Assembly (NCBI GenBank): GCA_958009085.1
Contig: OY253677.1
Span: forward strand, 248,001-312,000
Direction of reading: 5' to 3'
Origin: Protoeuglena noctilucae
Taxonomy: Eukaryota
Length of the DNA: 64,000 nucleotides
Positions 1 through 60,833 of this stretch are shown here, piece by piece. Position 1 is the stretch's first letter, and every line of letters begins with the position of its first letter. The notes beneath the pieces were generated by a model. The model saw only the letters and a program-made list of their open reading frames with translations, did not search any database and was not told where the DNA came from. The translations under genes and the position numbers were made by a program.

Positions 1-3000
1 AGACCCACCTGGGCCCCGAGTACTCCGCCACCACGGTGAGGGCAGAGACGCTGGCAAACTTGCCTGCCTACTCTCCTCACGCTTCGTCTCAGGTCTTGGG
101 ACAGCCGCACACAGCTGACTGTCCAACGATTCGCCGCGCGCATCCACTGTCTGTTTGTAGTGCGCTCTCTGCTGGACTCTGCTGGACTCTGCTGCAGCAT
201 CGCGTGGCTTGGCTGGGGTCCTGCGAGTGGCTCTCGCTTGCCGGTCCGCACGTCTCTATGACGCACCCCATGCGGCCCCTGTTCCGTCCGCAGCTGTACA
301 TCAAGGAGATGCCCAAGGGGGCGAGCGATCTGCGGCTGGACTTCTCGTCCCTCCTGGGCCCTCTCTTCTTCCTCTGGGTGCTGGGACTGCCCTTCCCGGG
401 TGAGGCAGCCACTGGGTGTCGGATACCGACACAGGCGCGTGTCCCTATGCTTGTCCCTCTGCTTCCTGTGGGTGCTGGGCTTGCCCTTCGGCGCTTCGCC
501 AAAGCGTGCTTCGCTCCGCCCGCCCCCGCAGTCATGTTGCTGTCGTTGGTGTACGAGAAGGAGAACCGCCTGCGCATCATGATGAAGATGCACGGGTTGT
601 CGGACAACAGCTACTGGATGGTTTCGTACATGTGGTGGATCATGATCACCATCATCTACTCCCTGTTCCTGCTCATCTTCGGCAACATCATCAACCTCAA
701 CTTCTTCCGGGACAACGACTTTGGCATTAAGTTCATCTTCGTCATCGCGGCGCAGCACGCCCAGGTCGCCACCGCCTTCCTCCTGTCCTCCGTGTTCAAG
801 TCCAGCCGCACCGCCACGATCTTCGGGTACATCTGGATCCTCGGGTCGGGCATCTTCGCCGCAAACATCATGAACACGTTCATCGACGAGGGGCGCAAGT
901 GGGTCCCGGCCATCGAGCTCATCCCGACCTTCGGCATCTACCGCGGCCTGTACGAGATGTCCCAGTACGCATTCCGCGGCCAGTACCGCGGCGGGAAGGG
1001 CCTCACCTGGTCCAACCTCAGCGACCCCAACAACGGCATGGGGCGAGTCATGGGGGTCTTTATGCTCGAGTTCTTCGTAGCCATGCCCCTGGCGTGGTAC
1101 CTCGAGCAGGCGAGTGGGGGAGTGAGAGAGTGGAGGGGCAGGAGGGGGCATTGTTGCCTGGGAAGGCACACCAGCGTCCCCACCTTCTCGCCTGGCCCCG
1201 CAGGTGGTCGACGACTCCACGGGCGTGCGCCGCCACTGGCTCTTCTTCCTGCAACGCAAGAGGAAGGACGGGTTCGAGAAGGACACCGCGACCCCCACCG
1301 TTACCGCGAGGGAGCTCCTGGGCGGGGAGGATGTCATGGCGGAGCGTGAGCTTGCCCACAACCTGAGCGAGGTGCGCGGATGCCTGCGTGCCATGCCAGG
1401 CACAACGTGTCGGTGTTAGCGCTCGACTGGTCTTGATGACTGGTGGCATTGCAGGGCCCCTGTGTTAGGTTGCTGTGTCTACCTTGTCTGCAGGAGGACG
1501 CGTCCGAGTACCCCATCATCATCAAGGACCTCCACAAGGTGTTCCCGGGCCAAGACGGCAACCCTCCCAAGATGGCGGTCAAGAGTCTGTCCATGGCTGT
1601 GCGGCGCGGGGAGGTGCTGGGCCTCCTGGGGCCCAACGGGGCGGGTGAGTGGGCGAGGAAAGGGAGTCACGGGTTGCGATGTATGCCAACCACGCATGCC
1701 GGGCCAGCTCACGTGCGAGGTTCAGTCGTTGCAGTGCCTTGCCCGGGCGTCCTCTGTTTGGCAGCCCTGCAGCCGTGCCCCGTCCTCGCCCTCTGGACTC
1801 CCTCTCTCTGCCGCCCTTGTTTGCAGGCAAGACGACGTCCATCCACATGATGGTGGGCTTCCTGGAGCCGTCGGGCGGCACGGCGCTCGTGGACGGCATG
1901 AGCATCCGCGAGGACATGGACGCCGTCTACAGCAGCATGGGGGTATGCCCTCAGCACGATCTCCTCTGGCACAGCCTCACGGGCCGGGAGCACCTGGACT
2001 TCTACGGCCATCTCAAAAACATCCCGCACGAGCGTCTCAAGGACGAGGTGGACGCGGCGTTGAAGGCCGTCAACCTGCTGAATGTCGGGAACAAGCCGTG
2101 CGGGCAGTACAGCAGGGGCATGAAGCGCCGCCTCAGCGTGGCCATCTCCATCATCGGGAGCCCCAGGTGGGAAGTGTTCTTAGTGTAAGGCACATGTCGC
2201 GCTTTGCATGAATGGGCTGGGCTGGCGCTGAGGCCACGCCAGCTGCACATGCGCGCAGGGTGGTGTATATGGACGAGCCTTCAACGGGCTTAGACCCTGC
2301 TTCGCGGCGCAACCTCTGGGACGTGGTCAAGGCCGCCAAGGAGAACAAGGCGAGCGGCAGCAGCTATGGGTCTCACGGAGCACAGGACTGCGAGCGCGGT
2401 TGTGGATTGAGACTGCGGGCACATGGCACCCATCCACCCTCCCCGACCCTGTTTGCAGGCGGTCATCCTGACGACGCACTCGATGCAGGAGGCGGAGGTG
2501 CTCTGCGATCGCTTGGGGATCTTCGTGGACGGCGAGCTCTTTACGATCGGGAACCCGCGCGACATCACGGGTGTGCAAGCATGCCCACCGCAGGCGTCCC
2601 CATCATTGCCTTACCGGCGCCTCCCGTAGGATGGCTCCCTGCCGATTCCTTCATCAATGACTATCGCGTTTGCTCGCAGCCCGCTACGGTTGCTACCTGC
2701 TCTTCTCGATCTCCACGCCCGAGGACCAAGTGGAGCGCGCCGCAGCCCTGGCCAAATCCATCCACGTGTCAGCAGAGCTCAAGTACCACGTCGGGGGCAC
2801 GCAGAAGTTCAAACTGCCCGCCAACGAGGTCATGCTTTCCGCCGTCTTCAAGGCGAGTGTCAGCTTCCAGGCTGGGGAGTGGGCGGCTCAGTCAAAGCCT
2901 GTGCAGTGCGCCTTGTCCAGTATCTGGCAGTACCTGCGAGCACCGGACGCCAACTCCGCCACGTCGTGCAGGCGGTGGAGGACGCGCAGTCGCGGGGTCT

Positions 3001-3100
3001 TCAGGTGGTGGACTGGGCCGTGCAGAATGCGTCGCTGGAAGACGTGTTCATCGACATTGCGCGGTCAGCCAACGCGCAGTTGCAAGACCTCAAGGCATAG
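1..3100 (+). CDS. ABC transporter subfamily A (ABCA), multi-exon, 5' end lies before the window
   Basis: TM domain with [18 protein letters not shown]. Walker A is split by an intron ([12 protein letters not shown]). Also [10 protein letters not shown], a [14 protein letters not shown] signature, Walker [15 protein letters not shown]-loop [11 protein letters not shown], and C-terminal SLEDVFI. Stop TAG at 3098-3100. Introns include GC-AG at 1110-1203, 2350-2458 and 2853-2971. Confidence 0.95.
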
Positions 3101-4291: not shown

Positions 4292-4308
4292 GCTTTGGCG
4301 TATGGCTC

Positions 4309-5849
4309 CTAGCCCAAGTAGAGCTCCAGGTTTCGGACGCTGATGAGGACGCGGCGCTGCCCCAGCGCGTCCATCCCCAGCAGGCCGTGCGGCTCCTCCG
4401 CGGCGCGCTCCCCGAAGATGCCTGGGAAGACGGCCAGGTCGCTGAGGGCCACCCGGCCCCCGCCCAGTGGGACTTCGCGCTGCCCGCCCCCCTCCTCGGG
4501 CGCCAGGAGGGCCTCGGCAGCGGGCACGAGGGGCAGGGCGATGGAGCGCCCGTCCACGCCCACGCCGACGATCTCCTCGGCGCCCTGGGGCGGGGCCACG
4601 CCGGGCCCCACCAGCCCCGACTGCGGAGGCCATCGCGAGGAGCGATGGGCCGGCATCAACTCACCACGCACAGGCGTCGCTGCCACGTCTGTTCTCGCAC
4701 CTCGCTGGCCGCCTCGATGTTGATCGCCGTAAAAGAGCTCCCCGTGTCGAGGATGGCGCTCGTGACGACCGGGCGCCCCGACTCGCCTGGCGGGCGGAAG
4801 ACCACGGGGGCCCCAAGCAACGCCGAGGGGAGGGGCGCCAGGGGCACGGCGGCCAGGCCCTCCTCCTGGGGATGTGCGGGCCAGGGTGGCATCGCCAAGG
4901 GGCGTGGCGCCAATGCAACGAGGATGTGGTAGCAAGGGCGCTCACCTTCGCGACCCGCCGCGCGTTCCCCGGCTTGTAGAAGCGCACCCTCTTGGCTGCG
5001 GGGTCAAGGTCCACGTCGACTTGCGCCATGAACTCGACGCCGAGCATGCCTGCCACGTCGCGTCCGCCCGGCATGCGGTGCTGGGGGAAATCGCTGACGA
5101 GCGCGTGCAGGGGCCGCAGGCGCTGGCTGGCGATGGACACGTCTGTCAGGGTCACGACGCGACCGGAGGACAGGCCCCCTGCCGTGTAGCCCTCCTGCGC
5201 GACAAGCCCAGCTCCAGGCCTTGGGAGGGTGCCCACTGCCAGTAGGTGCATGCATGCAGCTGTGGGGTCCCAGCGGGCTGGCGCCGCACCGCAGTGAATC
5301 CCTCATCAGCGGAGATGCCGAGCCTGTCTCTCGTCTCTGGCGTAATCAAGTTCGCCGTGAGACCGCTGTCAAGGAGGAACAGCCCCGTGAAGGCACCGAT
5401 GCAGATTGGGAGGAGCACGTACGCGCCGCCAAACCCTCCCCGGGGCAGCTCCAGACGTCTCAATGGGACCTGCGATGCGGCAGGGCTCGGGTGGCTCGCG
5501 ATGAAGCGAAGAGTAGGGGCGGCAGCAGGGGCAGTGGGGCTTGTGCACGCCTCGCCTCGACGAAGGGGACCCCCGACCGCGATGTGGGCGCGGCAACAGC
5601 AGCACGTGCCACTCCACAATGCACCGCGTTGGCACCGAGGAGTGCGAGGGCACCGGCGGCGAAGAGGTCGCGGCGCGAGGGGCTCGTCGAGGGAAATTCG
5701 TTATCGAGCGCGAATACCGATGCATCGCGCTCGATTGGCATCGCGCCGAGCGCTCGATATGGGATGGACGGCGAGAGGCGCTCCCGCTGGCAGGGAGGCC
5801 CCGCGCGGGCGAAGGACGTGGCGCACGATGCCATCGCCGGGTGGCCCAT
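4309..5849 (-). CDS. Two-domain retropepsin-like aspartyl protease, probably plastid/thylakoid targeted
   Basis: Two catalytic-type motifs (FLLDSGLTANLI and AILDTGSSFTAIN), each followed by a G(M/L)LG motif (VAGMLGVEF; HGLLGMDALG). The N-terminus has an S/R/A-rich transit region and SRRDLFAAGALALLG. The start could be 5849 or 5834. Confidence 0.75.
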
Positions 5850-8590: not shown

Positions 8591-8744
8591 TAAGTTGGAA
8601 GTCTACAACGTCGTTCGTTACCGTGCTGCACACTTAGCCCTAACCACTCTGTCTCGTTCAACTGCGCTGCGCGTGGCCTAGTTGGATCAAGTTCCCGTGC
8701 GCTGGCACAGTCGTTCGACCGCAGCGATCCTCCTGGGCTTAGCG

Positions 8745-10583
8745 ATGGACGGGCCAGGGCGCCGGCTCGCCTGCCTCCAGCGCCACGTCGCGGTGTCGAC
8801 GGACGCAGCGGTGCGTGATGCATGCGCGTTGTGGCTCCTGCGCAGCGATGGAGGCCCGTGCCGAGGCTTGGCTTTCCTCGATGGGGCAAGAAAGCAGGCA
8901 CTTCACGGGCGATTTGACTTGACGCTCTCAAAGATGTGTCGCCCACGCCAATGACATGTGCGTATTCTTTGCAGGATCATGGTCTGTCGAGCGTGAGGGC
9001 GCTGGAGACGGGGGCCTCCCACCCCGCCCGGAGGTGCGCACGTGGCCCGTCCGCACGTCGCGCGCGCTGCACCGCTGCGAGCGCCCCGACACCCGCTTTC
9101 TAGCTTGCCAACGTCCACTGTGGTGCTGTCGTTCTGGCGGGGGCAGCGTCGCGCCGAGAAACCCCTGCGCACGGCCGCGGCGACCACCTGACCAGCTCGC
9201 CCTGTGCAGGTTCACCGTTGCGGTGCTGGGGGCCGCGGGGGGCATCGGGCAGCCTTTGTCGCTGCTGCTCATGCAAAACCCCAACGTCGCGGAGCTCAGG
9301 TGCTCGTCGGCAGCGCCGCCGTGCCCCTGCGCGCCGCTGCGTGCCGCGGCCCCCGTGACCCTTTGCCCGCCTGCCCCAGGCTCTACGACGTGGTCAACAC
9401 GCCCGGCGTGGCGGCGGACCTGTCTCACATGGACACGGGCGTGCGGGTGCGGTCCTTCGTCAAGCAGGAGTCGCTCTCAGACGCCCTCCGGGGGTGCCAC
9501 CTGGTGGTCATCCCGGCTGGGGTGCCCCGCAAGCCCGGCATGACCCGGGACGACCTCTTCAACATCAACGCGGGCATCGTGCGGTCCCTCTGCGAGGCCA
9601 TCGCCCACGCCTGCCCCCACGCGTGGGTCAACATCATCTCGGTGCGTGCAGCAAGCACGGGGCGCCTGTACCCGTCCGTGCGCCCTGCGGGGTCCGTGCC
9701 TCAGCCCCTCTGCGCTCCACCTCCCCTGCCCGCAGAACCCCGTCAACTCCACAGTGCCCATCGCCCACGAGGTCTTCCGGTCGCGGGGCGTCGACAACGC
9801 CGCCCGCGTGTTTGGCGTCACCACCCTCGACGTCGTACGCGCCAACACCTTCTTCGCCGAGGCCATTCGGGCGGACCCCAACCAGGTCGCCGTGCCCGTC
9901 ATCGGGGGCCACGCGGGCAAGACCATCCTGCCCCTCTTCTCCCAGGCGAGCGCAGCTGAGCTCACCTATGGGGTGCGCCAGAAGGGCCCTGGACGCCCCG
10001 CAGTCTCCGTGGCTCGACCGCGACAGGCGCCACCTCCGCCGCGGCATCGCAGGCCAGGCCGTCCCCCTGGGGCCTGGCCCCTGCGGACCTGGAGGCGCTG
10101 ACGGTGCGGACGCAGAATGCGGGCACGGAGGTGGTGGAGGCCAAGGCAGGGGCGGGGTCGGCCACGCTCTCGATGGCCTACGCGGCCGCGCGGTTCGCGG
10201 GGTCCTGCCTGCGGGCCATGGCGGGGGAGCCCGGCGTCACCGAGTGCGCCTTCGTCAAGTCCGGGCTGGCACCGCCCCTGCCCTTCTTCGCCAGCCCCCT
10301 GCGGCTGGGGCCCGCGGGGGTGTCCGAGTTCCTCCCACTGGGTGAGCGCATGTGCCCGGTCGCGGCTATGCCTGGCTCTGCACATACATGCGTCCCTTGC
10401 TTGTCGTGTGCCCTCTCGCACTGATCTGGGCACGCCCCCCTGCGCTGCTGTCGCAGGCAAGCTCTCCGACTACGAGCGGAGGTCTCTGGAGGACATGAAG
10501 GAGGAGCTGGCACAGAGCATCCGCAAGGGGGTCGAGTTCGCGGGGGCCCCTCCCCCGGGGCAGGCACAGGCCAGGGCCGCGTA
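8745..10583 (+). CDS. MDH: NAD-dependent malate dehydrogenase, peroxisomal/glyoxysomal type
   Basis: [73 protein letters not shown] and [25 protein letters not shown]. The first exon [15 protein letters not shown] contains a PTS2-like nonapeptide. Confidence 0.95.
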
Positions 10584-13888: not shown

Positions 13889-15890
13889 ATGTGCGGGCTG
13901 CGCTGCGTCCCCATCGCGTTCGTCCGCGCACTGGGTTTCGCCCGCGCACGGGCTCCGCGAGCCCTCTCCGCGTCAGCTGTATCTAAACCAGGGCCCCATG
14001 TTGCATCAGGTTAGCGTCGTCGCACTCCTTGATCCAAATGGCCTTGCCAAAAAGGTTCAACGGCCCACCAAACACTCCAAACGCAACCAAACGCAGACGA
14101 CACAGGCTTTCTCCTCGACCACGTGCCAGCGACAAGCGCATACGTCCATCTCCCCTTCTGCAAGCGCAAGTGCTTGTATTGCGACTTCCCCGTCCAGGCC
14201 GTGGGCGTCCACACCGACAGGGCGTTCGTGCAGGACACGATGGCCGACTACGTCGACGTCTTGTGCCGCGAAATCCGCGCCACGAGCGCCGAGGGCAGTG
14301 CCCCGCTGCGCACCGTCTTCTTCGGGGGTGGCACGCCAAGCCTCGTGCGGCCAGAGCTGATGGGAAGAGTCCTGGCGAGTCGCACCCGGCATCTGCATCA
14401 TGCATTGCCGATGCCTGGCCCATGTTCATGGCATGTCCATGGCGATGGCGCTGGCATACGCAGGAGGAGCTTGATCGTCAGTTCGGCATGGCGGCCGGAT
14501 GCGAGGTGGGGATGGAGGTTGACCCCGGGACCTTTGACGCCCGGCGCCTGTGTGACTTCCTGGCCCTGGGGGTGACCCGCGTCAGTGTGGGGGTGCAGAG
14601 CTTCGATGAGGACCTCCTGCGCGCCTGCGGGAGGTCGCACAGCGCGGCAGACGTGGTCAGGTGAGCAGGTCGACGTAACAAGCCGGGATGCGTCAATCAT
14701 GAAAGCCTTACCCTTAGTAACGGGGTGGGGTGGTGCAGGCGCTCACACGTGTTCCTCCCATGCAGAGCTCTGGAGGATGTGCGCGACTCGGGAGTGCGGT
14801 CGTGGTCGCTGGACCTGATGTCGGCTCTGCCGGGGCTGGGCGAGGCGGCGTGGGCGCGGACCCTGTCGCAGGCCATTGCCTGGGGTCCTGACCACGTCAG
14901 CGTGTACGACCTGCAGGTGGAGGAAGGGACGCCCTTCGCTCGTATGTACCAGGCGCGTGCGGGCGACGGGTGGGGGGCGTCTCGTGGGTGGGTCGATGGG
15001 AGCTGGTGGTCGTCCGTCACACGCCTGTGTTGACCGCTCGCCCCTGGCCCACTCTCCCAGCCAGGCACGCCGCCCCTCCCGACCGAGGAGGCCTCGGCAT
15101 CGATGTTCCGCGAGGCCAGCCGCGCCCTGTGCCGGGCCGGGTACGAGCATTACGAGGTCAGCAACTACGCCAAGCCGGGGCACCGGTGCGCGCACAACCA
15201 GGTCTACTGGCGCGGCATGCCCTTCCTGGCGTTTGGACTCGGAGCTGCGTCCTACCTCCGACGCACGCGGTTCTCCAGGCCCAAGACCATGAGGTGCATG
15301 GCGCAGTCGCCTGCTGCCACGTGTGAGCGGCAGGCAGAGGTGCTCAGGTGCCCCTGTGGTCCCGCGCTCGCAGGGCTTACCGTGCGTGGGTGGATGCATT
15401 GGAGCAGCGCGCACAGGAGCTGGGCCGCCCCACTTTGCCCGGGCCACTGTCGTCGGCCCACCCCAGCCCGGTGCGGGGGCACATGCGCGCGTGTCGGGTG
15501 CCATAAGCGACCCCAGGTCGCCTTGTCATGCGTCAAACTGATGCCATCTGGCCCCGATTTCCCCTACAGGAGCCCGACACGCCCCAGGAGGTGCTGCTGG
15601 ACATGGTGATGCTGCGACTGCGCACTGCCGATGGGCTGTCCCTTGCCCAAGTCCAGGAGAGGTTTGGGGCCCCGGCGCGGTACGCCATAGCGACGGCTGC
15701 CACACCGCTCGCCGCCCGCGGCCTGGCTACCCTCTCCGCCGACGTCTTGCGCCTCACGGACCCCGAGGGCTTCCTCGTCAGCAACGCTGTCATCGCAGAG
15801 CTGTTTGCCGCCCTGGACGCCGCGCCGATCGGCGATGCCTCGTGGCCATCCGCCAGCCGTCGCATGCGTGCACCAACTCCATCGGATTAA
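13889..15890 (+). CDS. hemW: Radical SAM heme chaperone HemW/RSAD1 (HemN-like), organelle-targeted
   Basis: AYVHLPFCKRKCLYCDF (CxxxCxxC), FFGGGTPS, RVSVGVQSF, YEHYEVSNYA, and the HemW-type HNQVYW motif. R/A-rich N-terminal exon at 13889-14009. Confidence 0.9.
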
Positions 15891-18575: not shown

Positions 18576-21500
18576 ATGGGGCAGGATGTGGCACGGGCGC
18601 TCAAGAGCATGCAGGCCAAGCTGCCCGCGTCTGTGCTTGCGCGTCCGCTCCCGGAGGATGGTCGCTGCGTCACGATCCGCGTCCAGGCAGGGACCGCGCG
18701 CTCTATCCCCGCTGGCACCTGGCCCTGCTGCCCGTTTGACCGGGTCCGCGATGCAAGGGCACGCCCGGCGCCGCAGGAGCTGAGGAATTTGCAGACCAAG
18801 GCGTTTTCGGTGCACTTGAGGTTCATCGATCCTCGGACGGACAAACCTCACCAGATTCAAGCGTACAGAGCGCTCAGCGTCGTGGTGCGTGACACGCCTT
18901 GTCCTCGAGCCGAGTGTGGTTTCGCGATCGCGCGTGTGTCGTCTTTGCATACGCCGATTTCGACAGTCCTCTTCCGATCGCATGCGTTCTTGGCCCTCCC
19001 CGGCGCCTGGCACCGCCGCGCGGGGCGACATGCTGGCGCCTTGCCTGCCTGCAGAGCGGCCGCGCCATCGTGCTTCTGTGGATCCGGATCCCTGGCACCT
19101 CTGACAGCGTAGAGATTCAGCTTTGGCAGAATCGGCGCGGCGGGGCGGCGCCCATCGTGCGGGCCCACCTGGGGACGGCGCACCTGTCGCTCGAGGGCGT
19201 CACGGAGAAGCCCACGCCCGCCATCGTGGCGTTCCTGCCGCCCGGAAGCCAGGCCGCCGCCGAGGCCGCCGAGCCGCAGCGCCAGTCCACCGCGCGGGTC
19301 GCCAAGGAGGTGAGGGAGCTAGGGCCGCAGAGCTTGTCAACGAGTCGGGACCGCGGAGGGTGCATGTCAACTCCTCCTCACCCGCCCCGGCCGCCCCGCT
19401 CCGCCGCAGCGCCTGGCCCTCTTCCGCGACCGCGTGGTGACCGGCGCGGACGTGCCCTCCAACGCGGTGGGCGTGGCTGTGCTCGAGTCCTTCGTGGAGC
19501 ACCTGCCCCCCAACAACAGCAGCTGGGACTTGGACGTGGCGGTGGGGCCCCTCGCGCGGCCCGCGCACCTCTACGGCCACGGGGCCTTCCTCGGCGCCGC
19601 CCCCGTGCTCCTTCGCGACCGCCGGTGGGACGCCATCCTTCTGGCCCTCGAGCCCCGATTGCGCACCCTGTGCCTGCGACTGGCGAGACGGGGGGGGCTG
19701 GCCGGCATCATGACGGCGCTCGAGAACAGCCCCGTCCTCGCCGCATTCGGCGTCGCGGGGGCCGGGTTCGCCCCGCCCAAGCGCAGCGGCTTCCTCGCCG
19801 CCACCTGGCGCCAGGTCACGACGTCCGTGGGCTCCCCCACGGGCGCCTCCGGCAGCCGGGAGGACGGCCTCCCGGGGCCCGTGGCGGAGGCAGTGGAGGG
19901 CGCGTGCCTCACGAGCCACGGCACGCGGCGGGTGGAGCCGGCAGGGTCGGCGGAGGCGCAGGCGCCGGCCGAGGGTGGCGACGGCGACGGCGCGGAGGAG
20001 GAGGGGTGGGCCGAGCGCCGCGTGGTGAAGGGCGACGTGCTGGACGGGCACGTGTCGCTGCGGGAGGAGAGGCCAGGCCCCTGGCCTGGGGGGTCCCAGG
20101 AGGGCGCAGGCGCTCTGCGGGAGATGGGCCTGCGGGACGGGTGGCTGGGTCTGGGGTCGCACGAGGGCCAGGGTTCGTGGTGGGTGGGCGCGGGACCCGT
20201 GGCGGAGGCCCTGGAGGGGCAGGGGTCGCGGGGTTGGTTCGGGTCTGGGCCGGAGGAGAGGGACCGAGAGGGTGACGACGAGTACGCGATTGCCATGGGG
20301 GAGCTGGGGAACGCGATGATGGCGGAGGAGCTGGCGGCGGTAGAGCAGGTGCGGGGGAGGGGTGGAGTCAGTGCAAGATGCGATGAGAGGCCACGGGGGT
20401 TGCCTGTTCGGGTTTCATGTTTCATTGGCTATCACTTCACAGGTCGAAGGCAACCGCGATAAAAGCTTACCTGGTGTCCACCGCGGTCGTTGCAGGGCAG
20501 CACACGTCCGGAGGCGGGCCAGGCGGGCACCGCAGACGAGGGGGGCGCGTCAGACGGGAGGAAGGGCCACGGCAAGGGCAGGGCGCTCAAGGTGTCCCCC
20601 CAGGCGCGCTTCGACCCCGGGTGCTTCTTAAAGACGGTGAACCGGTACGGCTACAGCCCCCTGGCCGTCGAGTGGGACCTGTGGCTGGACCCGGACGCCC
20701 CGGGGGACCTGACCAAGGCGGCCATCGTGCACAGGAGCGCGGCGACGCTGCTGGTGCAGGCCGTCTTCAGCATGGCGTGCCTCAACGCCACGGGCATCGC
20801 CGGCTGGGCCGGGCGCCGCGTCATCATGAAGGAGGGCCTCTCGCCCTTCTCATGGCTGGACAAGTTCGGCCTGGCGCTGCAGAAGGGGTGCGACACGCCC
20901 CCCGTCCTGCGCAACGACGCAGGTGCGCGCCCTGCGACCACGGCCACACGCAGGCGGGCGCCCACACGCGTTCAAGAGTCCCGTCACGCCTGGGCCCTCC
21001 CCTTCCCCGCAGCCATCCCTTCCTACCTGGCCGTCACCGCGCAGCTCTCCTCGTGGGAGTGGGTGAGCCCCGCGCCGCAGGCCTGGGGCGACCGCATGGA
21101 CATCCGCATCCGACTCGTGCACCCGGGTGCGTCACACACGCCTGGTGCCTTCATGGCTTTGCCTTTTACCTCTGCCGCGGGAGGCATCACCACCTTAAGC
21201 TGTTCCCAAAATGACGACTTTACGTCCAAGCGCTGCCCGCAGAGCCCCGCGAGCCGTCCCACTGGTCGCTGACGCCCCCCCGCGCCTCGGCCGCCCGTGC
21301 CCACCGCGCCCGGAAGGACGCCGAGGCCGGGGCCGGCCCCGTGTCGCTGGAACTGTATCCGATCCCGGACGTCAACAAGTGCCAGGGCCTGGGCGTCGTC
21401 GTGGAGATGGTGGCCCCGTCCGGGCACGTCCTGCGGGCGGCCCCGGTGCCCGTGGCGGACGTGGTGGCCGCGGGGGCTGCGGGGATCGACGTGGAGGTTG

Positions 21501-43829: not shown

Positions 43830-46800
43830 TCAGTTCATGGACCCCGAGCAGTTGGGGGCGCCGCAGTCGCACGGGATCTTGCCGTCCTCGTCTTCCTGCG
43901 GAACGAGATTCCCGCGCCGGGGATGAGCGGCCCTCACGATCGGGCACCAGCATAGCACGCGCACCCTCCCTCACGCGCCCCCCTCGCCTGGAAGCGGTAG
44001 TTGAAGGTGAGCTCCTGGCCCATGCGGATGTCCGAGCGGGAGATGAAGACGAGGTGCTCCCTGCCGTCGACCTCGACCGTCTTGGCGTACATGCACGGCG
44101 TGCAGGCGTGGTTGGCGAACCGCGCGATGTGCCCGCGGTCCGTGGCGTCAATTACGGCGTCCCCCAGCGCGAACAGGTAACAGTCCTTGCCGCGCGCGCG
44201 GTACCCCCGCTCCCTCACGTCCGCCACGGGCCGCCGCACCACGTCCCCCCGGTACTCGGTGATGAAGGTGTCCTGGGGAATGGCGCGGCGGGCCATCAGG
44301 CCCCAGCCGTGGATGCCCGACTTGCCGAACACGATCGTGTCGCGCTCGCGCTCCAGCATTTCCTGCGAGCGGGGGCGGCTGCCATGGAGCGGTCCCTCCA
44401 TGCTCCATCGCCATTGCAGGTGCTTCTCCGATGCGGCGCGCCCCCCCTCGCCTTGAGCCTCTGCTTGATGGGCTTGGACGCCCTCGCCGCCCGCTTCCTC
44501 CCCGCCAGCTCCCGCAGCTGCTGCCCCAGCTCCCGCTGCCTCCGCCGCAGCGACTCAAGGCTCTCCTGGCGCGACTGCAGGTCCCGCTGGCACCGCGACA
44601 TGTGCTCGGCCACCAGCTGCGGGGGAGGGGGGAGAAGTTGGCCACACACATGCTGAAACTTGATGACCAAGTCGACCCACCCACCAGCGTCACAAACGCC
44701 AACTCCCGCACCTGCGGCAGCACTTGGATCTTGAGCACCGGCTGCAGGCTCCCCAGCGGGAAGGTCTGCGTGACGTGCCCCGACACGGCCGTGCTCTGCA
44801 TGGGCACAGCCACCTGCGCCTCCGCCTGCGCCTGGCTCATGCCCAGCAGGTGCGCCAGCTGCAGCGTCAGGTTGGTGGCCCACGTCTGGTGGAAGATGGC
44901 CAGGTGCGAGTGGCGGGCCTGGGGCGACAGCCCTGGGTGGCTCATGATCTCCTGCACCGTCGAGTCCTGCAGCGACAGCTGGCGACGCAGGGCCTCCACC
45001 ATGCTGCGGGGGCAGGGAGGGCAGAAAGGGTTGGTGAGAAGGGTGGCAAGGGTTGTACCATTGCCACACGGGTCCAGGGGCAGCCTCGAGCGCTCTGCAA
45101 TGCGCGCACATCTGTCGCATGGCCATCGCCGTGTATAGCAGACCACCGCCGCCCCAACCGCCACATCCCCCTCACCGCAGCCGCCCGATCAACGCGTCCA
45201 CCTCCTTCGCCACCCCTGCCAGCTCCTTCCCCACCCCCTCCAGCTCCTTCCCCACCGCACGGTGCTCCGCCTCCCGCCGCGCCTCCTCCGCCGCCGCCTC
45301 GGCTGCCCCCGCGCCCTCCTCCTCCTCATCCTTCACCCCGTCTCCCGCGCCCTCACCCTCCTTGCCCGCTCCCTCGCTCTCCGACGCGCGGCTTTCGGGG
45401 CGGCCCGCACGCTGCAGCCACGCCTCCCCCTCCACCGCCTGCGACTCGGGGAGCTCGCTCCACCGGCACCGGCGGGGCCCGCCCAGCACCTGTGCTGTCG
45501 CGTGCACGAACGCACGCTTGCCCGCCCGAGTGGGAGGGCCGCGGGACGTCGAGCCGCGAGGCGCCACCGCCGCCGCTGCCGCCGCCGCCCCGGTCGGGCG
45601 GGGACCCACGGGGCCGGCCCCCGCCAGTGCGGACATGGCGACGCCCCCGCCTCCCTCGGCCAGGTCCTGGGCGTCGTCGTCCGTCCGGCGCGCCTGGGGG
45701 AGGGAGACGTTGCAAGTGGGAGCGTGGCATGAGCACGAGAGGCTGGCCGGTGGCAGAGGGGAGGCTGAACATGCACAGCCACTGCCCTGCCCTCGCCTGC
45801 TTGCATATCACGCACAGGCAACCGTCCCTGTGCCTCCCCGGCCCCCCTCCCCTCCCCTTGGGCCTCCCCGGCTTGACTCCCCGCACCCCCGGCGGCCCCT
45901 GCTGCGCCCGGGGCACCTCCAGCCCATGCGCGATGAGCCAGTCCCCCACCGTCTCGCCCTGCCCTGCGAGCCACGAAGCGAAGGCCAGGGATGTCAGAGC
46001 GAGGTGTCAACCGTGTCGCATCCCCCGTTTGCAGAGCCCTTCACCATGCCTCCACCCCCATCCGCTCATGTCACCCGCTCCTGTCCCCCTCGTCGTGCCC
46101 CCAGAGCCCCACCCGCTCACCGGTCTCTCTGAGTATGCGTATGGTGGCCTTCCACTTCTTCGACGACTCCTTCCCCGCCAGTCTCTCGAACTCCGTGGGC
46201 GTCACCTGCCGTCCCGTGTCCTCCAGCACCACCGACATGTGGCGGGGGCGGAAGGTGCCGCGGAGGCTGCGGGGGAAAGAGGGGCGGTGGGTAGGGGGAT
46301 GAGCGCGGAGGTGCGGTGGAGGGGTGCGGTGGTAGAGGCGCAGGGTGCGGTGCGTGAGGGTGGCCCTGTGGCATTGACAGCTGCAATTGTCATTCTCATC
46401 CCAGTTTCCGCATCCGCATCCTCGCCTTCCGCACATGACCTTGACTTCCTGCGGCGCGTTGCCCCCCAGTCCCCCCAGCCACTGCACCACCTCCCGGGAC
46501 AGGTCCAGCTCCTCCATCTCGCGGTCGTCGTAGAGGATCAAGTGGCGGCCCGTCACGGGGTTGAAGCCAGTCACTGCGAGATACGAGACACTCTCGGAGC
46601 GTGGCCGTTGAGCGAAGTTTGCCAAGTAGTACGTTGTGCGCGTGTATCCAGGCCACCTCACGAGCACAGCGCCAAACGGCCGCGTGCACCCCATGCAAAC
46701 ACCCCCACCAGTCGTGCACAACCCTCTCACCCGTGCCGGGGTAGTAGATGTCGTCGTCTGCCCAGTAGACGTTGATGCGGTGGCCGATGCGCTCGGGACC

Positions 46801-49800: not shown

Positions 49801-52800
49801 CCCCTCGCTCCCGCTCTCCTCCCTGTCCCCCCCCGCCTCCTCCGGCAGCCAGAATCCCCGCACCGTGGTCGTCCCCGCCCCCGTCCCGTGCCGCACCCGC
49901 GCCCACCCCGCCAGCGACCGCGCCCGCCCGCACTCGCCCCCCAGGTCCGGCAGAGTGGCGGCGGGCGGCTGTCGGTACGGCAGCGCCGCGTCGTGGCACG
50001 GGTCCTGCTCCCAGTCCTCCTCGTCCTCATCCGCCGGCCGCACCGACGCCAGCTCCGGGTGCGCACGGCAGTGCCTGCCGCAGTAGGCCACCATCGAGAC
50101 ACTGTCGTTGGTGGCGTGCTCGCGGACCTCCATGCGGAGACCGGCCATGCGGGCGCTGGGGGGGAGGGGGGGTAGGGTGAGTGTGTTGGGGTGGGAGAGC
50201 GGGTGCGGGCGTCGGCGGAGGGGTGCGGGAGGGGTGCGAGGGTGGGACGGCGAGCGAGCGTGGGGTATGCGAGGGATGTGCGAGATCTGGAAGGTCGCTC
50301 TGTGCGGGTGGCCTGGCATGGGGTGCAGCCCAGCCCAGTCGGCATGCAACCGCTGCCGTGTCGTGCCTTGTGCCTCTGCTGCCTCACCACAGGGGGTGGA
50401 ACGCGGTGTAGCACGAGTTGACCTTGCACTGTATTTTGGCCCCCATGGTCTGCTTGCAGCAGCTGCACCTCAGCTCCCACCGGTCGGGGGGCATGGCCGC
50501 GATGCCGTCGATGGGCTCCATGGTGGGGGACTCGCCCTGTGTGTGAGAGAGATGTGGGGAGAGTGGGTGTAGATACGACAGTGGTACAGTGCCGAGAATG
50601 GGGGAGCGAGGGAGAGTGCAGGGGGTGCTGAGCACATTAGGACACAGGGTCGGCGGATGGGATCGATGCATGCCCCACCATGCACCCATCGCACACACTC
50701 TCTCTCACCAGCACAAACACCTCCGGAATCCACTGCATGCACGTCAGGTGCGCCCACAGCCCCGGGATGGTCGTCGGCTTCAGCGCCCCCCCCGTCACGG
50801 GGCACAGGCAGCACTGCAGCGTGCGCTCGTCCGCACCCTTGGCCACCTCCTCACAGGCACTGGGGGAGGGGTGCGGGGGGGTGGATGAGGGTCAAGCTTT
50901 GTGGTAAGTGGAGGATTACAAACCCACTGTTGTCCCAGCCAGTTCAACTGCCACATGCCAGCACCCTCAGCCCCACCACCCCGCCCCGCCCTCACTACCA
51001 CCACCCCACCCCCACTGCCCTCACCGGCAGACCCACGCGTCGCCGACCTCGGGCATCTCCGTGACCCCGTAGCATCCCTGGTGCACCGTGATGGCGCACT
51101 GGGAGCAGCTGATGAACTGGTCGGCCTCGTGGTCCGTGTCGCCATCGCAGACGCAGCAGCGGTCAGGGGCGTAGCGCACGTGCACGGGCATGTACAGGCC
51201 GGCCACCACGGCCATCCACGGGTGGGGGAGCGTCTGCTGGCGGAACTGGAGGGCCAGGGCGGCACTGCGGGGGCGGAGGGGGTGTGGGGTTGGGGTCAGG
51301 TGGGGTGGTGAGGGGGGAAGGGCGAGGGTGATCGAGTGCCGTGTCTGTGTGTCTGCCTGTGCGTGTCTGTGTGCCCATGTGTCTGCCTGGTCTGTGCCTG
51401 CGCCTGTGCCTGCGCGTCCCCTCCGCTCCCCCCTCGCCTAAGTATGGAGGGTCCCTTGGCCACGCCCTTCTTCCTGGCGTACGGCTGCGGCTTCTCCTCC
51501 ACCTCCTCCGCCATCGTCGACGCCAGCATCGCCAGGGGACTCCGGGGGTCGCGGGGGGGGGCGCGGCGGGGGGGGGCGTGGGACGAGGCGCCAATCGTGT
51601 CCAGCCAGCGGCCGATGGGCATGGCGGATGCTGGGGGACAGGAGAGGGTGGTGGGTGTGAGAGTGGGTGTGGGAGAGAGGGAGCGGTGCGGATGAGATGT
51701 GCAGTGAAGCGACCTCGCCCGTCCCTGCTCCCGCCTCCCCGCACCGCTCCCCTCCCCTTCCCCCCCACCCGCTCCCCTCCCCAGCCGCTCACCTCCCCTG
51801 GGCACTTCGGGCACGGACCCCGGCACCACCTTGACCGATGCCTTCCACTTCTTGGCAGCGCTGCACCCCACGTGGGACTCCCACTGCGGGGAGAGACGCG
51901 AGGCGTGAGCACGGCTGGGGTGCCATGGCAGGGGAAGATGCGGGGCAGCGTGGGAGTCGTACGGGGTGAGGCGCACGAGATGACTGGGTTGTGGCTTGCC
52001 TCAGCAAATGGGCAGCAAAGATGGATACGAAGCAACGCTTTAGCTACGTCGCTGTGCTGACCACCACCCGTCCCTATCTCGCCCACATCCCCCTGTCATC
52101 TCCCTCACCCGCGTGGCACTCCACGTGCGCTCCCCCTCGTCCTCTGCCCTCATGCACCGACTGCAGCTGCACACCACCGCCTGCGTCGCCAAGTAGAAGT
52201 CACCGCGGACGCCATTGCACTCCACTGCGAGAGAGGGGAGACAGCGGTGGTGGCGATAGTAGGGTATCGGTGATGAGAGCGGGGGCGAGGCTGCCCGGTG
52301 CACTGCCCATGCCGCGTCCGCATGCGACGTCACGGCAATGTCGCATGGCCACCCCTCGTCCCTCGTCGCATCCCTCACCCAGCACACAAGTCGGCCAGTC
52401 GGTATCCACCGCCACTCCACCATCCATCCCCATCCCCATCTCATGGATCCTCGCCCCGCCGCTCCCCTCCGCCACTCCCGCCTCCGCCTGCCGCATCTGC
52501 GCCTCGTAGCCACGCGTCTCGTGGCGCACGCGCTTGGCAGCCGGCGCCACCAGGACCTCCCCGGACCGCTTCAGAGGGGCGAAGAGGTCATCCAGGGTGC
52601 GGTGCTGCTCGGGGGGCAGGGCGCTCCCTGCGCGCGTCATGGGAAGTCGCACATCAGCAACAACAAATGTGATGCATGCACTGATGAAGTGGGGCATTTG
52701 AAGTCGCGATATGTAACAAAGATGCCATGCTCACCAGTGCGCCTTAGCTGTCGGTGACATCCACCCCCTCTCACACCATCCGCACTCACCCGGCTCGCAC

Positions 52801-55287
52801 CCCATCCACGCCTGCCTGGCCTCCGCGCCCATGCGCCCCCACATCGCCACCGCCCCCCGCACCACCCCGCCCACGTCCCCCCGCACCTCCCCCTCCGCCT
52901 CCTCCCCCGCCCCGCCCCCCGCGCCCTCCCCCGGCCACTCCAGCCGCGCTGCCGCGCACGCCACGAACCGCTCAAACGCAGTACAGGGGCCCAGGGGGGC
53001 GTGGGGCGGCCGGCGGGGGCGGGGCGGCTTGGCGGCCGCTGCCCCGGCACCCGCGCCCCACCCGTCTACGGCCGCAATGTAGGCGCCACGCCCGCGGCCA
53101 CGCCCACGGCCCCTGCCGCGGCCCCTGCGGTGGCGGGATGGAGTGGATGGCAATTGGCGAGTGTGGTGGACGAGCAGCCGTTTTCTCTTACCTAGTCGCA
53201 CCACCATCGCTCTGACCCCTCACACCCCGTCACGCCACCCGCCCTCACCTCCCTCGCCCGCGCCCCCTCCCCGTCATCCACAGCGTCTCTTCGGGGATGT
53301 AGACGTGGAGCTCCTCCTCGTTCCACTCCAACCCCATCTGCAGGCCAGGCAAAGACACGGTGGCAGTATGGGGACGTGCAGTGTCGACACGCGGCAAGGT
53401 CACCACGACTCGCTATGACGCAACCACCTCTCTGCCGCGGCCTCACCTCGACGTGTATCCGCATCATGGCCTCCTTCCTCAGCGCAATCTCCTTCTCCTT
53501 GCGGCACCGGCGGCACACGTACTCTGCAGACGCCAACCACAGCAGCACATCGGTTCGGTCACTCGCACCCACCAGCAACAGAAGCCCCCACGGCCACTAG
53601 CATGCACCGCGCATCCAGCCACCACGCAGCGCCCAGGGTCAATCACACGCACACGCTCCCACCCCAAGCCCACCTTCGTCCGCTGGGTTGGCCATTAACC
53701 GCGCCGCCTCTGGGTCGCACTCGGCATGCACCCACTTGGCACACGAGTCGCAGTGCACCATCTCCTTGTCCGTGACCTGGGGAGACGACCGATGCGGGAG
53801 CATGCATCGACATGAAGCGCGATGGCATCAAGTGGCACAGCAGCACATCATGGCACAACACATGACAGCGCCGCGTTCATCCATCGCCAACCCCCTGACG
53901 CTCACCTGCCACACGCGCTCGCACACGGGGCAGAACTGGTCCTCCTTGTACAGCTGCCGGCACTTGAAGCACCGCCCGTCCGCCTCGGCCGCCCTCTCCC
54001 GGTCCTCACCCGCCAGGGGGGCCAGGCAAGACCGACACAGGCCCTGCTGCTCCGCCGCCTGCGGGGAGGGGTGCCATGGTGACACCGTGTCTTGCGATCG
54101 ATCGTGACGTGCGAGGGGCTCTCTCGCCAGAGACGGCCACACACGCGGCCCCTCCCTGCCACCCTCGCCTGCGTCAGGTCCAGCTCGGGCGGCATGAAGT
54201 TCTCGACGCCGGCGTCGTGGGCCATGGCCTCCGCGACGGCGATCTGAAAGGCCGCGGGATCCCTGCCGAAGGGGGCGACCTGCGGGGGCGCGGGACAAGC
54301 GGGGGACAAGCTGGGCGACCGGCACGGCGTCTGCGCCTCCGGGGACCGGCAAAGGCACGCGCCTGCTGATCGCAGCGGGAGATGAAGTCGCGGAAAGGAA
54401 CGACGGATCCCTCCGTAGCCCAGGCGAAGTCGCGGCCGTGCGCGGAGGGGCCCAGCAGCATGACGCACACGGCGTCCGCCACCGCGTTGCGGCGGATGTC
54501 CAGGGGCGCATGCTGGTTTGGGTCGACGATCAAAGCCTGCGGGAGGAGGCGGATCGCGGTGGGCGGGCGATCGCAGGGGGCGTGGCAGGGGCTGCGTGAC
54601 GCGAAACGTGCGCAAAGCTCAGATACACGGTCAGGCCAAGCTTTGCTGCCGATGCGCAGCGAGCTCTGGTTGCGATCAGACAATAGAAAAGCGTGCCCGC
54701 AGCTCCCCGCGTCCCCCGCCTCGGGGAACGGACGGCGGGGACGGGACCTGCCCCGCCTCCGGGGAGATGCTAATGGCAGGCAGGCGCGCGCAGGTATGGG
54801 GTCGCCTCGGTGCAGTGCCGATCCTAGACATGACAAGGGACCCGGAGCAGCAAATGAAAGCCAGAATGATCCAGGCTCGGGGAAGCACGGGCCGGACTTC
54901 CGGCACTGATCCCGGTTGCACCGCTGCGCAGCCCAATGAGGCAAGTTCGGCCCCACCCGCCGACCAGCATTAGAGAAATGAACGAGACTCGACACGAGAC
55001 GCGCCCCCTCAGCACGCGGGCACCGCGCGGGGAAAAGCTTGGTCACGCCAGCCCGGACGCCCGAAAAACGCCGCCTGAAAATCCGTTTCCAGCTTCATTT
55101 GGTCGATGTGGAAGCCGGTGGACGCGCACGGTCGTGCCCCGCTGCGCCCGCCGCCCAAGAGAAGCCCGGGAACGCGGTTCGGTGCGCTCCGCCCCCTCAC
55201 CGGCCAAAAGACCTGGGTCCGCGCCGTCCCGGTGGTCAGCCACGCTGCATCCCCGACGGTGAAGTCCTCCAAGGCAAACACCGTCAT
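43830..55287 (-). CDS. Trithorax-related histone H3K4 methyltransferase, ATX3/4/5 (SDG14/16/29)-like, many exons
   Basis: PWWP (EDFTVGDAAW...FWP|ALIVDP...CVMLLG...RDFAW), PHD (FCPVCERVW|..MVHCDSCAKWVHAEC), PHD (CCVCDGD..ISCSQCAITVHQGCYG), ePHD (CCLCPVTGGALKPT; CSCCKQTMGAKIQC), SAND-like KKWK motifs, Tudor-like VYWxDD motifs, SET (FGKSGIHGWGL; ARFANHAC; ELTFNYRF) and post-SET CDCGAPNCSGSMN. Stop at 43830-43832. Confidence 0.9.
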
Positions 55288-58151: not shown

Positions 58152-58435
58152 GGGGAGCAAAGGGGGGATGTGGTGGAGGTTGTACACGGGTGGGGTGGTG
58201 GTTGTATCTGACGTGTCTGGTTGTCGCGTGCCGCGGCGTCTGCTTGCCCCACGCGGCGAGCGGTGCTCAGTTGAAGCGCTGTGTCAGGACGTCGAAGGGA
58301 AGGAACTTGCGGGGAAGGGGACAAGCGGTCGAACGCGAGTGGCAACACGAGAGTGGCACAGACACACCGCGGGTGTCACCCTCAGTGCAACAACAGACGA
58401 CCCCACAGCACAGAGAGCGATTGGCGGCCCCGTCT

Positions 58436-60833
58436 CTATGCGTCGCTGCACCCCACCACGCATCGACCCCCCGCGTACACCCGCTCCACCCCCGGCCTCT
58501 CCCCACATACCTCATTTAGCCCTCCCCGTGCCGCTCGGCCCATACACGCGAGCCACTCCAGTACATCCGAGTCCCACACCACAAAGTCGGCGTGTGCCCC
58601 TGCCTCGAGCGTCCCTACCTCGCCAGCCATGCCCATCGCCTCTGCCGCCCACGCCGTGTCCATCGCCAGGGCCTCCTCAGCACTCGCGCCTCCCCACGCT
58701 CTGCCCGCGGTGCCTGGCACCCCCGCCACCGCCGCCAGCATGCCGCCGAGAGGGTCCAAGTCGACGATGGGCCAGTCGGACCCGGCAGACACGCGCACGC
58801 CGGCATCCAAAAGGAGGCGGAGGGGGAAGGCGCGAGAGGGAGTGGCACGAGATGGGCCCAGGCGCTGCTCCTGTGAATTGGGGCGAGGACGAGGGCGAGA
58901 CTGAGGGTGAGGGCAAGGGTGGAGGCGTGGGTGAGGGTGAGAGGGGATCAAAGGTGAGGGTGAGGGTGAAAGGCGGGTGAATTAGCATTGGAGCCTATCG
59001 CCGTACGCGCCCAACCAGTTCCTGTCTCAGCCTCCTTACCAGCCCAGGGATGTCGATGGCCATGTGCAGCGGGTTGACCACAGCGCGTATCCACCCCGCC
59101 GCCAGCAGCTCCGCCGTGGCTGGCCCGGAGATGTGCTGCACGTGCTCAATGCGGGGAATGCCTGGGACGCCGCCGCGCAGGGGTCCCCACTCGACCTCTG
59201 CTCGCGCCTGGGCTCGCAGCAGCGCGCCCGCGACCTGCAGATGGCACGAAGGGAGGGCGTGGGTGCGTAATCCACTGCTGCAGGCTCAGCACGACGACAT
59301 AGACCTCCATCAGTCATGGCACCCACGCACCTCGTCCACGGCGCGGTCGCCGATTGCATGAACCGCCACGCCCAGCCCCGCCGCCATCGCTGCAGCCGCC
59401 TCCGCCTCCAGCCACGCGGGATCCACCAGCGCCACGCCCGTGCCATCCCCGTCTGCGTAAGCGTCCCAAAACCACGCCGTCCGCGACCCCAGCGTTCCGT
59501 CTGCGAACTCCTTCACGCCACCCAAGGACAGGCGGCCCCCAGTCCACCCCCGCAGCGCTGCCTCAGTCCCCGCCAACTCTGCCACCCTGGCCCACAGCGT
59601 GATCGGCAGGTACGACTGCGAGAGAGAAGAAAATTTGGCGCTCGTTAGCACCACTGCGCTCCCCGCAGAAAGCGCCAAGGACCAGGGTGAGCTGGCGATT
59701 CCCATGACGTTTCAGGGTGCCGACTGCCGTTACAACCCAAACAAAGCTCACCTCCCACACTCGCAACAGCAGCAGGCTCCCCTCTATTGTGCATCTCACC
59801 CTCACGCGCAGCAGCAGCTCCCCGTCGTGGTCAGCCGCAGCCAATGCGCCCGTCCAGTCCAGCAGTGGCTGCTCTGGCCCCATGCTCCACGCAGGCTCTC
59901 CCATGTCCCCCACCGCCGTCACCCCCCTCGCCAAGGCCACCCCCTGCGCCCGCATCACTGCCTGCCGCCGTGCCTCAGCACCCGGAGCAGGGACGGCCGC
60001 CGTCACGCGGGCCATCGCCCCTTCGCGCAGCAACCCCGTCGCTGTGCCGTCCGCTCCGCACAGCACGAGCCCTTGCGCCTCCCCGCACCCATCCAGCGCC
60101 ACCCCGCCCGCTGCCAGGGCAGCCGTGCTCGCCACGCCCGCATGGGCGCACACCCGCCGCAGCCATACGGGGCGACCCTTGGCGGCCGAGTCCAGGTCCT
60201 GCGAAGGTCAGGGCCACGCAAGCGCTAGCGGTGGAGTTGCCATTGGTTGCAGCCAAGGCCAGCAGCCCCCGACCCAGCCGCGCCTGACGCGTGGGAAACC
60301 ATCCTCCCATGCGGCCCTCGTCCCAGCCATAACCGAGCACCCAGTCTCCCGGGTCGCCCAGCCCCTCCGCCGCGGCCCTGACTGCGCTGAGGAAGGCCTC
60401 AGGCGAGGCCACGGAGCTGAGGTCGAGGGGCGGGAGCATCCCCGCGGGAATGAGGTGGACATGGGCGTCGACCAGGCCAGGGGTCACGAACGAGTCCCCG
60501 AAATCCAGGACGGAAGCGTCACACGCGTCCCTGCAACACGAGGACGCCAAGCGCGCTCGGAATGCGCATCAATGTCGCACTGGTTGTAACCGATATGCAT
60601 CGTCTAATTCCTCACCGATTGTAGCCGCGGCAGTCATCCGCGTCGCTCCCCAGGAACTCCACGTGGCCTTCGCGGATGACGAAGCAAGACGCGCTGCCCG
60701 CAGAGGGCGAGGCCCACACGCGGCCCACGACGACAGTCTTAGCGACGCAGGGAGAGTGTCGCACGAGCACTGAGTGATGGCACGCTGTCGTGGCAAGAAG
60801 CGCTGCCGTCAACAGTGCGCCAAGCATTCGCAT
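58436..60833 (-). CDS. Amidohydrolase family 3 (YtcJ/LAF3-like)
   Basis: VTPGLVDAHVHL, WVLGYGWDE, ATGLLREGAM, GVKEFADGTLGSRTA, AVHAIGDRAV, RIEHVQH, GSDWP and GTLEAGAHADFVV. Hydrophobic N-terminus. Confidence 0.92.

Follow-up and report, generated by a model that had tools for sequence, protein, structure and literature searches.

Abundant GC-AG introns in a GC-rich pedinophyte green alga, probably shaped by donor context and base-composition pressure

Introns that begin with GC instead of GT, and end with AG, are unusually frequent in a 64,000-nucleotide stretch of DNA from Protoeuglena noctilucae (contig OY253677.1 of assembly GCA_958009085.1, positions 248,001 to 312,000), referred to here as the window. 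The phenomenon is real and apparently genome-wide, with a predicted share of about 13–16% of introns after decoy-level correction; a change in the small nuclear RNAs (snRNAs) fails to explain it, and the combination of compensation by the donor context and GC pressure is probably the best fit. The window has a GC content of 67.7% and lies on contig C10, in our numbering, of a 26.3-Mb assembly of 27 contigs, with about 68% GC in the genome and about 64% in intron interiors. Judging from its sequences, the host is a marine pedinophyte close to Marsupiomonas, in the Marsupiomonadales (a taxon treated in passages of PMC12574857). Rps2 from the plastid contig finds its best named match in Marsupiomonas sp. 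NIES 1824 (77%, other named matches reaching at most 67%), and the two fall in one clade (support 100/99) of a 24-row tree comprising the query, 12 named and 11 environmental matches, picked from 120 listed.

The original prediction placed 16 GC donors in the window on the basis of reading-frame continuity, and each of the 16 coordinates falls on the first base of a GC dinucleotide on the strand indicated. As had also been claimed, almost all follow an exonic AG (15 of 16, the exception being 14375, preceded by TG), and the introns start with GCGAG (12) or GCGCG (3), plus one GCAAG (22580). RNA contigs from 4 of 14 runs (two studies; sets X1, X2, X4 and X5) were placed on bases 1–20000, which hold seven of the sites. 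Among 15 listed of 57 RNA joints, eight are GT-AG, four are GC-AG and three lack any splice register. The GC-AG joints remove 1110..1203 (+; cag/GCGAGT, the slash marking the exon border; X1, X4 and X5) and 2853..2971 (+; aag/GCGAGT; X1, X2 and X5) from an ABCA transporter gene, 9946..10052 (+; cag/GCGAGC; X1, X4 and X5) from the malate dehydrogenase (MDH) gene, and 14953..15060 (+; cag/GCGCGT; X1 and X4) from a HemW-like radical SAM gene, while a fifth junction, 2350..2458 (+; aag/GCGAGC) in the ABCA gene, was obtained from paired loose ends (X1 and X4). When each RNA cut was slid over all permitted registers, GC..AG remained the sole option at these five junctions; the removed introns have GC first and AG last, as expected of the U2-type GC-AG class. 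The MDH contig shows zero mismatches, and the transcript-derived protein P0003 continues across the 9946 junction. For the three ABCA junctions, the RNA may partly derive from a 91% identical paralogue, itself GC at the same sites; the 1110 intron is GC in two paralogues, that at 2350 is GC in the paralogue on C15, and that at 2853 is GC in the C15 copy but GT in the C16 copy. Five GC among 13 RNA junctions represent a biased sample, unusable as a fraction. Sites 5555 and 14375 are absent from the 15 listed of the 57 joints, and RNA is silent on both. The three joints lacking a splice register (1364 to 1491, 2146 to 2468 and 3901 to 4064) were discarded before the count of 13 as contigs from paralogues or other organisms, and X2 contigs reading through GC and GT introns alike, which represent DNA or intron retention, are uninterpretable.

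The requirement of GC donors for protein continuity, established by RNA at five sites, is backed by homology at six more. In the HemW-like gene, positions 74 and 75 of TIGR00539 meet across the predicted intron 14375..14463 (+; ctg/GCGAGT). Two further predicted introns, 30183..30286 and 30422..30505 (both +), interrupt copy 2 of a pair of tandem paralogues and are absent from copy 1, to which the flanking sequence aligns without gaps. In a trithorax-like gene, reading through 43896..43987 (−), located after the SET domain, meets a stop, no in-frame GT lies within 30 nucleotides, and 142 homologue alignments span the junction, five of them gap-free; the intron 54280..54362 (−; cag/GCGCGT; model margin 7.6) likewise has no in-frame GT within 30 nucleotides and is bridged gap-free in 18 of 23 alignments. 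The sixth, 60199..60283 (−; cag/GCGCGG), belongs to an amidohydrolase-3 gene, in which the exon end can be aligned to 3ICJ as far as residue 81 of 82 and the PF07969 match picks up again at position 82, likewise with no in-frame GT within 30 nucleotides. For the other five sites, continuity is predicted by a gene model: 5470..5555 (−; gag/GCGAGG; margin 4.1) in an aspartyl-protease-like gene whose Asp_protease_2 match is under the cut-off; 21957..22078 (+; cag/GCGAGC; margin 3.2), where read-through hits a stop and an in-frame GT at −9 is possible; 22580..22702 (+; cag/GCAAGG; margin 11.8); 26040..26130 (+; cag/GCGAGG; margin 10.2); and 54059..54168 (−; cag/GCGAGG; margin 3.6), gap-free in 3 of 16 alignments, with in-frame GTs possible at +6 and +24.

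This two-strand model started from five genes of the window and then trained itself, with GA and GG permitted as decoy donors. When the window was included in training, it called 935 GT, 194 GC, 19 GA and 18 GG introns overall, and 95, 26, 1 and 1, respectively, in the window, where all 16 listed sites were recovered. As 26 of the 123 introns predicted there are GC (21%), the earlier estimate of more than 10% of window introns holds, and the 16 sites were an undercount to which the model adds ten. In strict runs, a single donor matrix was derived solely from GT sites, the three classes GC, GA and GG received equal priors, and the window was kept out of training (53 stretches, about 1040 introns); these runs returned 133, 146 and 176 GC donors, compared with 14, 18 and 29 for GA and 11, 17 and 41 for GG. 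The strict variants put GC at 13–18% and each decoy at about 1–4%. These runs recovered 13, 15 and 15 of the 16 sites, while the free held-out model recovered 15 (missing 60283) and matched 11 of the 13 RNA junctions. Frozen models applied to 20 fresh stretches gave 60–69 GC among 386–390 introns (15.5–17.7%), with GC present in all 20. Altogether, 73 stretches of 10 kb were covered (730 kb on contigs C1–C23, two adjoining the window and the others at round coordinates, with three ABCA-paralogue and two plastid stretches excluded); the free model called 231 GC among 1426 introns (16%; bootstrap 14.6–17.7%), the strict shared-matrix control 209 of 1413, and 72 of the 73 stretches contain a GC call. 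The modelled share is thus far higher than the 1–2% against which the original prediction had been set.

A parse-free test, in which motifs are scored at changes from coding to non-coding sequence, retrieved 87 of 247 AG/GCGAG and 92 of 230 AG/GTGAG, compared with 16 of 117 AG/GAGAG and 26 of 149 AG/GGGAG decoys. With CG as the exon end, GCGAG falls to the decoy level (23 of 252), whereas GTGAG stays above it (64 of 185). The raw enrichment of the k-mer AGGCGAG was weak (1.38-fold, versus 1.24 for a decoy) and was not counted as support. GA-AG and GG-AG were rejected as real classes, their 16–19 calls each matching the decoy expectation with no common strong context, though a few may be real. 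A repeat common to the three stretches L129, L141 and L148 (93–96% identity), probably a mobile element, was predicted as long introns.

The donor context was analysed in 191 GC and 936 GT predicted introns, and the donor matrix gives the GC consensus MAG/GCRAG. GC accounts for 154 of the 313 donors (49%) that combine an exonic AG with an intronic RAG at +3 to +5, for 20 of 304 with AG only, 14 of 355 with RAG only and 3 of 155 with neither. The compensation by exonic AG put forward in the original prediction is therefore needed but incomplete, as intronic RAG is equally needed (49% versus 2–7%). With the GT-only matrix, the double context AG/G-y-RAG holds 112–130 GC donors and 1–3 of each decoy (GA, GG), GC lying slightly above the decoy level elsewhere; GC donors devoid of exonic AG carry T at +6 in 10 of 14 cases. 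The GC share climbs with the number of U1 pairs outside +2, from 2/79 with four pairs, through 9/430 with five, 82/642 with six and 136/306 with seven, to 28/40 with eight (range 2% to 70%), and because of this climb the total of U1 Watson–Crick matches is alike in both classes (GT 6.0, GC 6.1). Outside +2, GC donors have 6.1 matches and GT donors 5.0, the difference expected of U2-type GC-AG introns. GT donors trade exonic AG against A at +4 (P 8e-14), whereas GC donors carry both in 160 of 191 cases. Acceptors are of the U2 type, with CAG in 188 of the 191 GC and 915 of the 936 GT introns. The excess of phase 0 among GC introns (126/191, compared with 447/936 for GT) reflects the placement of exonic AG, the GC:GT ratio in strong context being 1:1 in all phases. 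No strong branch-point motif emerged from a scan, with CT[ACG]A[CT] occurring in 61 of 257 GC and 315 of 1251 GT introns. U12-type introns were considered and rejected, since the donors do not read RTATCC or GCATCC; the 191 GC donors comprise 144 GCGAG, 24 GCAAG and 8 GCGCG.

Altered pairing of U1 or U6, to which the original prediction attributed the GC donors, is not borne out by the snRNA genes. U1 is present as a single copy, according to an Rfam search and a DNA search with the gene itself, and its 5' end, AUACUUACCUG, is canonical; the single copy of U6 keeps ACAGAGA, and U5 loop 1 (GCCUUUUAC) and the U2 GUAGUA box are canonical as well, with one match each in the searches for U2, U5 and U6. 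These searches found no variant U1 with a 5' end complementary to GC, and U12 snRNA gave no match in a genome search run without a positive control. The body of the U1 gene (L001:1501-1660, on C20) is diverged, scoring 65.9 bits versus an Rfam cut-off of 69.5. Genes for U1C and LUC7, whose inspection had been recommended, were found along with SNRNP27 and a METTL16-family gene. The U1C zinc finger carries SF at residues 11–12, where the human protein has TY, and LV at 18–19, a part unaligned to the human chain. A lineage-specific relaxation of 5' splice-site recognition is not supported at the level of the snRNA pairing sequences, but some tolerance of C at +2 beyond that of mammals would seem to exist. 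The U1C gene (L152:1501-2662, on C1) itself holds a GC-AG intron at 1872-2029, and the METTL16-family gene holds one at L157:1906-2066.

Base-composition pressure, which the original prediction left aside, probably explains where and how often C appears at +2. In intron interiors, taken as the neutral reference, C/(C+T) amounts to 0.54 in G_G and 0.81 in G_A; at +2, the C share is 0.47 (132/281) in AG/GyGAG and 0.69 (22/32) in AG/GyAAG, so that C and T are found at about 1:1 in the double-strong context, near the neutral ratio. Furthermore, the GC share of strong donors increases over the terciles of locus intron GC (65/173, 38%; 57/128, 45%; 71/117, 61%), with a rho of 0.47 over 70 of the 73 loci that was equalled in 0 of 10,000 permutations. 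Among four ABCA paralogues, five GT/GC flips occur at common positions, the GC form accompanying exonic AG or a perfect GCGAGT.

The account that we favour, and hold to be reasonably probable, takes the introns for the ordinary U2-type GC-AG kind, made numerous by GC pressure that acts on a conditionally near-neutral base. The major spliceosome, with unchanged snRNA pairing sequences, would remove the GC introns, or about 13–16% of the total. Every donor would need a minimum of pairing, which GT donors would reach through either exonic AG (U1/U5 side) or intronic RAG at +3 to +5 (U1/U6 side), and loss of the U+2:U1 pair would be tolerated only where both are present. In these doubly strong donors, the +2 base would become near-neutral and GC-favouring substitution, by mutation bias or GC-biased gene conversion, would fill it with C like any intronic pyrimidine, which would be why C is as frequent there as at such pyrimidines. 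A neutral route via strong context has been proposed for mammals (passages of PMC2490688). Several points weigh against this account. The fraction derives from a model applied to 2.8% of the genome instead of RNA-seq over the whole of it. Of the 13 introns confirmed by RNA, this model missed two, which are GT introns lying outside coding exons, and its median margins are modest (4.4 for GC donors). The C shares at +2 are slightly below the neutral ratio, indicating that weak selection for T remains. In annotations, GC content by itself is no predictor of the trait, other GC-rich chlorophytes having low values, namely Chlorella variabilis (67% GC) with 0.7%, Gonium with 0.3% and Volvox with 0.2% (PMC6310983 supplementary file 8); annotation tools under-call GC donors, according to parts of PMC4028052. 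Finally, the portions of PMC2490688 consulted report mammalian GT>GC conversion rates without significant dependence on regional GC.

The foremost alternative, which is possible but clearly less probable, is compatible with the favoured account and supposes that a changed spliceosomal protein (U1C, LUC7, Prp8 or SNRNP27) relaxes discrimination against C at +2, GC pressure filling the opening. It would fit the presence of C in about half of the strong-context donors and 28 of the 40 strongest, compared with 0.865% GC-AG overall in human (passages of PMC1557818), the annotated values below 1% in several GC-rich chlorophytes, and the SF and LV residues of the U1C zinc finger; yet U1C, LUC7, SNRNP27 and METTL16 are all present, and the GC donors follow the same compensation rule as the five model species in the passages of PMC1557818. 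In its boldest form, which we put forward tentatively, unchanged snRNAs would be combined with altered protein proofreading, the U1C zinc finger being the candidate: donors beyond a sharp pairing threshold could do entirely without the "invariant" U at +2, the GC-AG share would be the highest of the green lineage among the tables examined, and the alga would serve as a natural system, its +2 base evolving neutrally and recording local GC-biased gene conversion. A variant U1 (or U6) pairing with C at +2 and serving the GC class is the least probable explanation of all. Nothing direct speaks for it, although the Rfam search scored just 41 of its 427 candidates for U1 and the body of the U1 gene has diverged; to the single canonical U1 and U6 can be added that a matched U1 would make the observed tighter flanks unnecessary.

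A wave of introner-like insertions at AG/G sites, each bringing its own GC donor, is unlikely. Two GC introns are confined to one tandem paralogue and several ABCA intron positions are copy-specific, and the MDH gene of a relative, found on metagenome contig L029, has none of four introns of the window MDH. However, when 1161 introns from about 2% of the genome were compared with one another by BLAST, 22 high-scoring segment pairs resulted, six of them with a GC intron, and no family emerged; GC introns resemble GT introns in length (111 versus 115, P 0.52), GC content, acceptor and next-exon base, and one paralogue can have a GT donor at the very position where another has GC. Identity between intron ends and exons is longer for GC introns only to the extent that exonic AG predicts, and presence or absence between paralogues is alike for GC and GT introns, a comparison that does not distinguish gain from loss. 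An origin from recent introners is thus largely refuted, old decayed ones being still conceivable. The MDH-related contigs L029 and L030 (75–78% GC) encode an MDH whose match to that of the window reaches 85% in the exon used for the search; on L029, the two N-terminal introns are kept and four introns further downstream, one of them the GC intron, are absent, so that either this organism is intron-poorer or the introns are recent gains in the window MDH. Each of these contigs, the only ones from relatives among the loci analysed, has six predicted introns, all GT and mostly in the same genes, which are too few for inference. It is also very improbable that selection favours GC donors as weak sites through which alternative splicing or retention is regulated. 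Such a role has been proposed for mammals and nematodes (passages of PMC2490688), and computed U1 duplexes are weaker in GC donors (−6.3 versus −8.1 kcal/mol). Nevertheless, GC donors occur in 72 of 73 stretches and every kind of gene, track local GC and flip between paralogues, and no alternative donor was seen among the 15 listed of 57 RNA joints.

Among the ten GC introns added by the model, four belong to the trithorax-like gene (43830-55287, −), which has about 32 exons with PWWP-like, PHD-type finger and C-terminal SET regions, and GC-AG in 7 of its 31 predicted introns: 44363..44451 (−; margin 8.4; gap-free in 25 of 59 spanning alignments), 45694..45796 (−; margin 5.7; spanned by no homologue), 46267..46425 (−; margin 4.2; gap-free in 9 of 10) and 51265..51437 (−; tag/GCGAGG; margin 9.9; gap-free in 2 of 20, in a poorly conserved region). 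Elsewhere, the model predicts 22298..22450 (+; aag/GCGAGA; margin 6.9), 23695..23791 (+; ggg/GCGAGT; margin 6.0) and 62349..62504 (−; aag/GCGAGT; margin 11.2), along with the candidates 62670..62780 (−; gag/GCAAGC; margin 3.1), 18687..18776 (+; margin 2.9, weak) and 21593..21737 (+; margin 0.6, doubtful). The last two minus-strand introns lie in a gene (61000-63780, −) that the model wrongly merged with the amidohydrolase gene below, and which we take to combine an Fn3-like domain with a C-terminal portion resembling peroxidases. The tandem paralogues (27237-29045 and 29460-31030, +), presumably glycosyltransferase-like from their motif, gave no Pfam match on the single exon searched; the two GC introns are in copy 2 only, and a GT intron at 28082 is in copy 1 only. 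Five of the 11 exons submitted to Pfam had no match at all.

Other features of the window were also noticed. Two RNA-confirmed GT-AG introns, 17174-17760 (587 nucleotides) and 17944-18106 (−), lie upstream of the modelled coding part of a HAD-like gene, and a single RNA contig of 2924 nucleotides extends over both this gene and the HemW-like gene that converges on it, which suggests that the 3' ends of the two overlap. A very large repetitive protein, rich in Thr, Ser, Ala and Val and encoded almost entirely by one exon of about 10 kb, occupies 31312-42140 (−); with its signal-like N-terminal and membrane-like C-terminal stretches, it resembles a surface or scale/adhesin protein, and the intron predicted within it at 39831-39911 is doubtful. 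An AT-rich non-coding gap separates two genes at 42700-43350 (58% GC in the 2-kb bin, compared with 62–72% in the remainder of the window). A DnaJ intron (56232-56321, +) ends with AAG, as opposed to the CAG of about 98% of predicted introns.

With regard to known systems, the trait is of a known kind, already published for other GC-rich algae, which the original prediction missed. No paper on pedinophyte splice sites was found in the literature searched (most subscription papers lie outside it), "splic" is absent from the main text of the pedinophyte genome preprint, and neither the passages of PMC11347168 nor the PMC10639083 supplement hold anything on the subject. For Prasinoderma coloniale, a figure of about 50% GC donors was looked for in the text and supplements examined of the paper on that alga, did not turn up and was dropped. 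No new splicing system is involved here. In this algal family, gene finders assuming GT would get about one intron in six wrong, which affects the majority of genes with several exons. The idea that GC content drives GC-AG introns, earlier only suggested, can be tested inside a single genome, since C at +2 varies in its share with U1 complementarity and with local GC, and nears the neutral ratio; this alga offers a clean case of how much +2 contributes to donor recognition, and of whether GC-biased gene conversion pushes splice signals.

Sheth et al. (2006; passages of PMC1557818) described, for human, mouse, fly, worm and Arabidopsis, the same GC..AG ends, tighter U1 match around +2, GT-AG-type acceptor and GT/GC switching. 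However, GC-AG amounts to 0.37–0.87% in these five species, compared with about 13–16% here, where the consensus is AG/GCGAG, with G at +3, and half of the strong-context donors have C. Plants average 1.2% (passages of PMC6310983), with a weak correlation to genome GC (passages of PMC7072748). In the 121-genome plant survey, which includes no pedinophyte and gives annotation-dependent figures for GC-AG plus AT-AC, raised values as here are listed for Ostreococcus tauri (8.5%), Micractinium conductrix (7.0%), Chlorella sorokiniana (5.7%) and Micromonas pusilla (5.6%) (PMC6310983 supplementary file 8); the present share is apparently about twice the highest row of this one green-lineage table. 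Parker et al. (2022; passages of PMC9803359) distinguished AG//GU (U5) from //GURAG (U6) donor classes. The GT donors studied here show the same trade-off, whereas the GC donors, a type unmentioned in the passages searched, represent the intersection of both classes.

Introners are involved in the pelagophyte Aureococcus. This species, Aureococcus anophagefferens (14–17%), and Pelagomonas calceolata (14%) have a similar GC-AG fraction and are likewise GC-rich marine algae; the sections of 10.1101/2024.10.30.620910 consulted ascribe this share to genome GC, low-GC Aureoumbra having 0.32%. Pelagophytes are, however, stramenopiles with fewer than one intron per gene (same sections), whereas this pedinophyte is intron-rich, at about 20 introns per 10 kb, with no repeat family. 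In Emiliania huxleyi, also GC-rich and marine, 56% of 241 curated, RNA-verified junctions are GC-AG with canonical acceptors, and GC content was again invoked (passages of PMC4028052). With a high genome GC and a modelled GC-AG share above 10% over the 73 stretches, the present alga resembles these GC-donor-rich algae, but GC forms the majority in E. huxleyi, whereas here GT makes up about 80% of donors and GC is restricted to doubly strong contexts.

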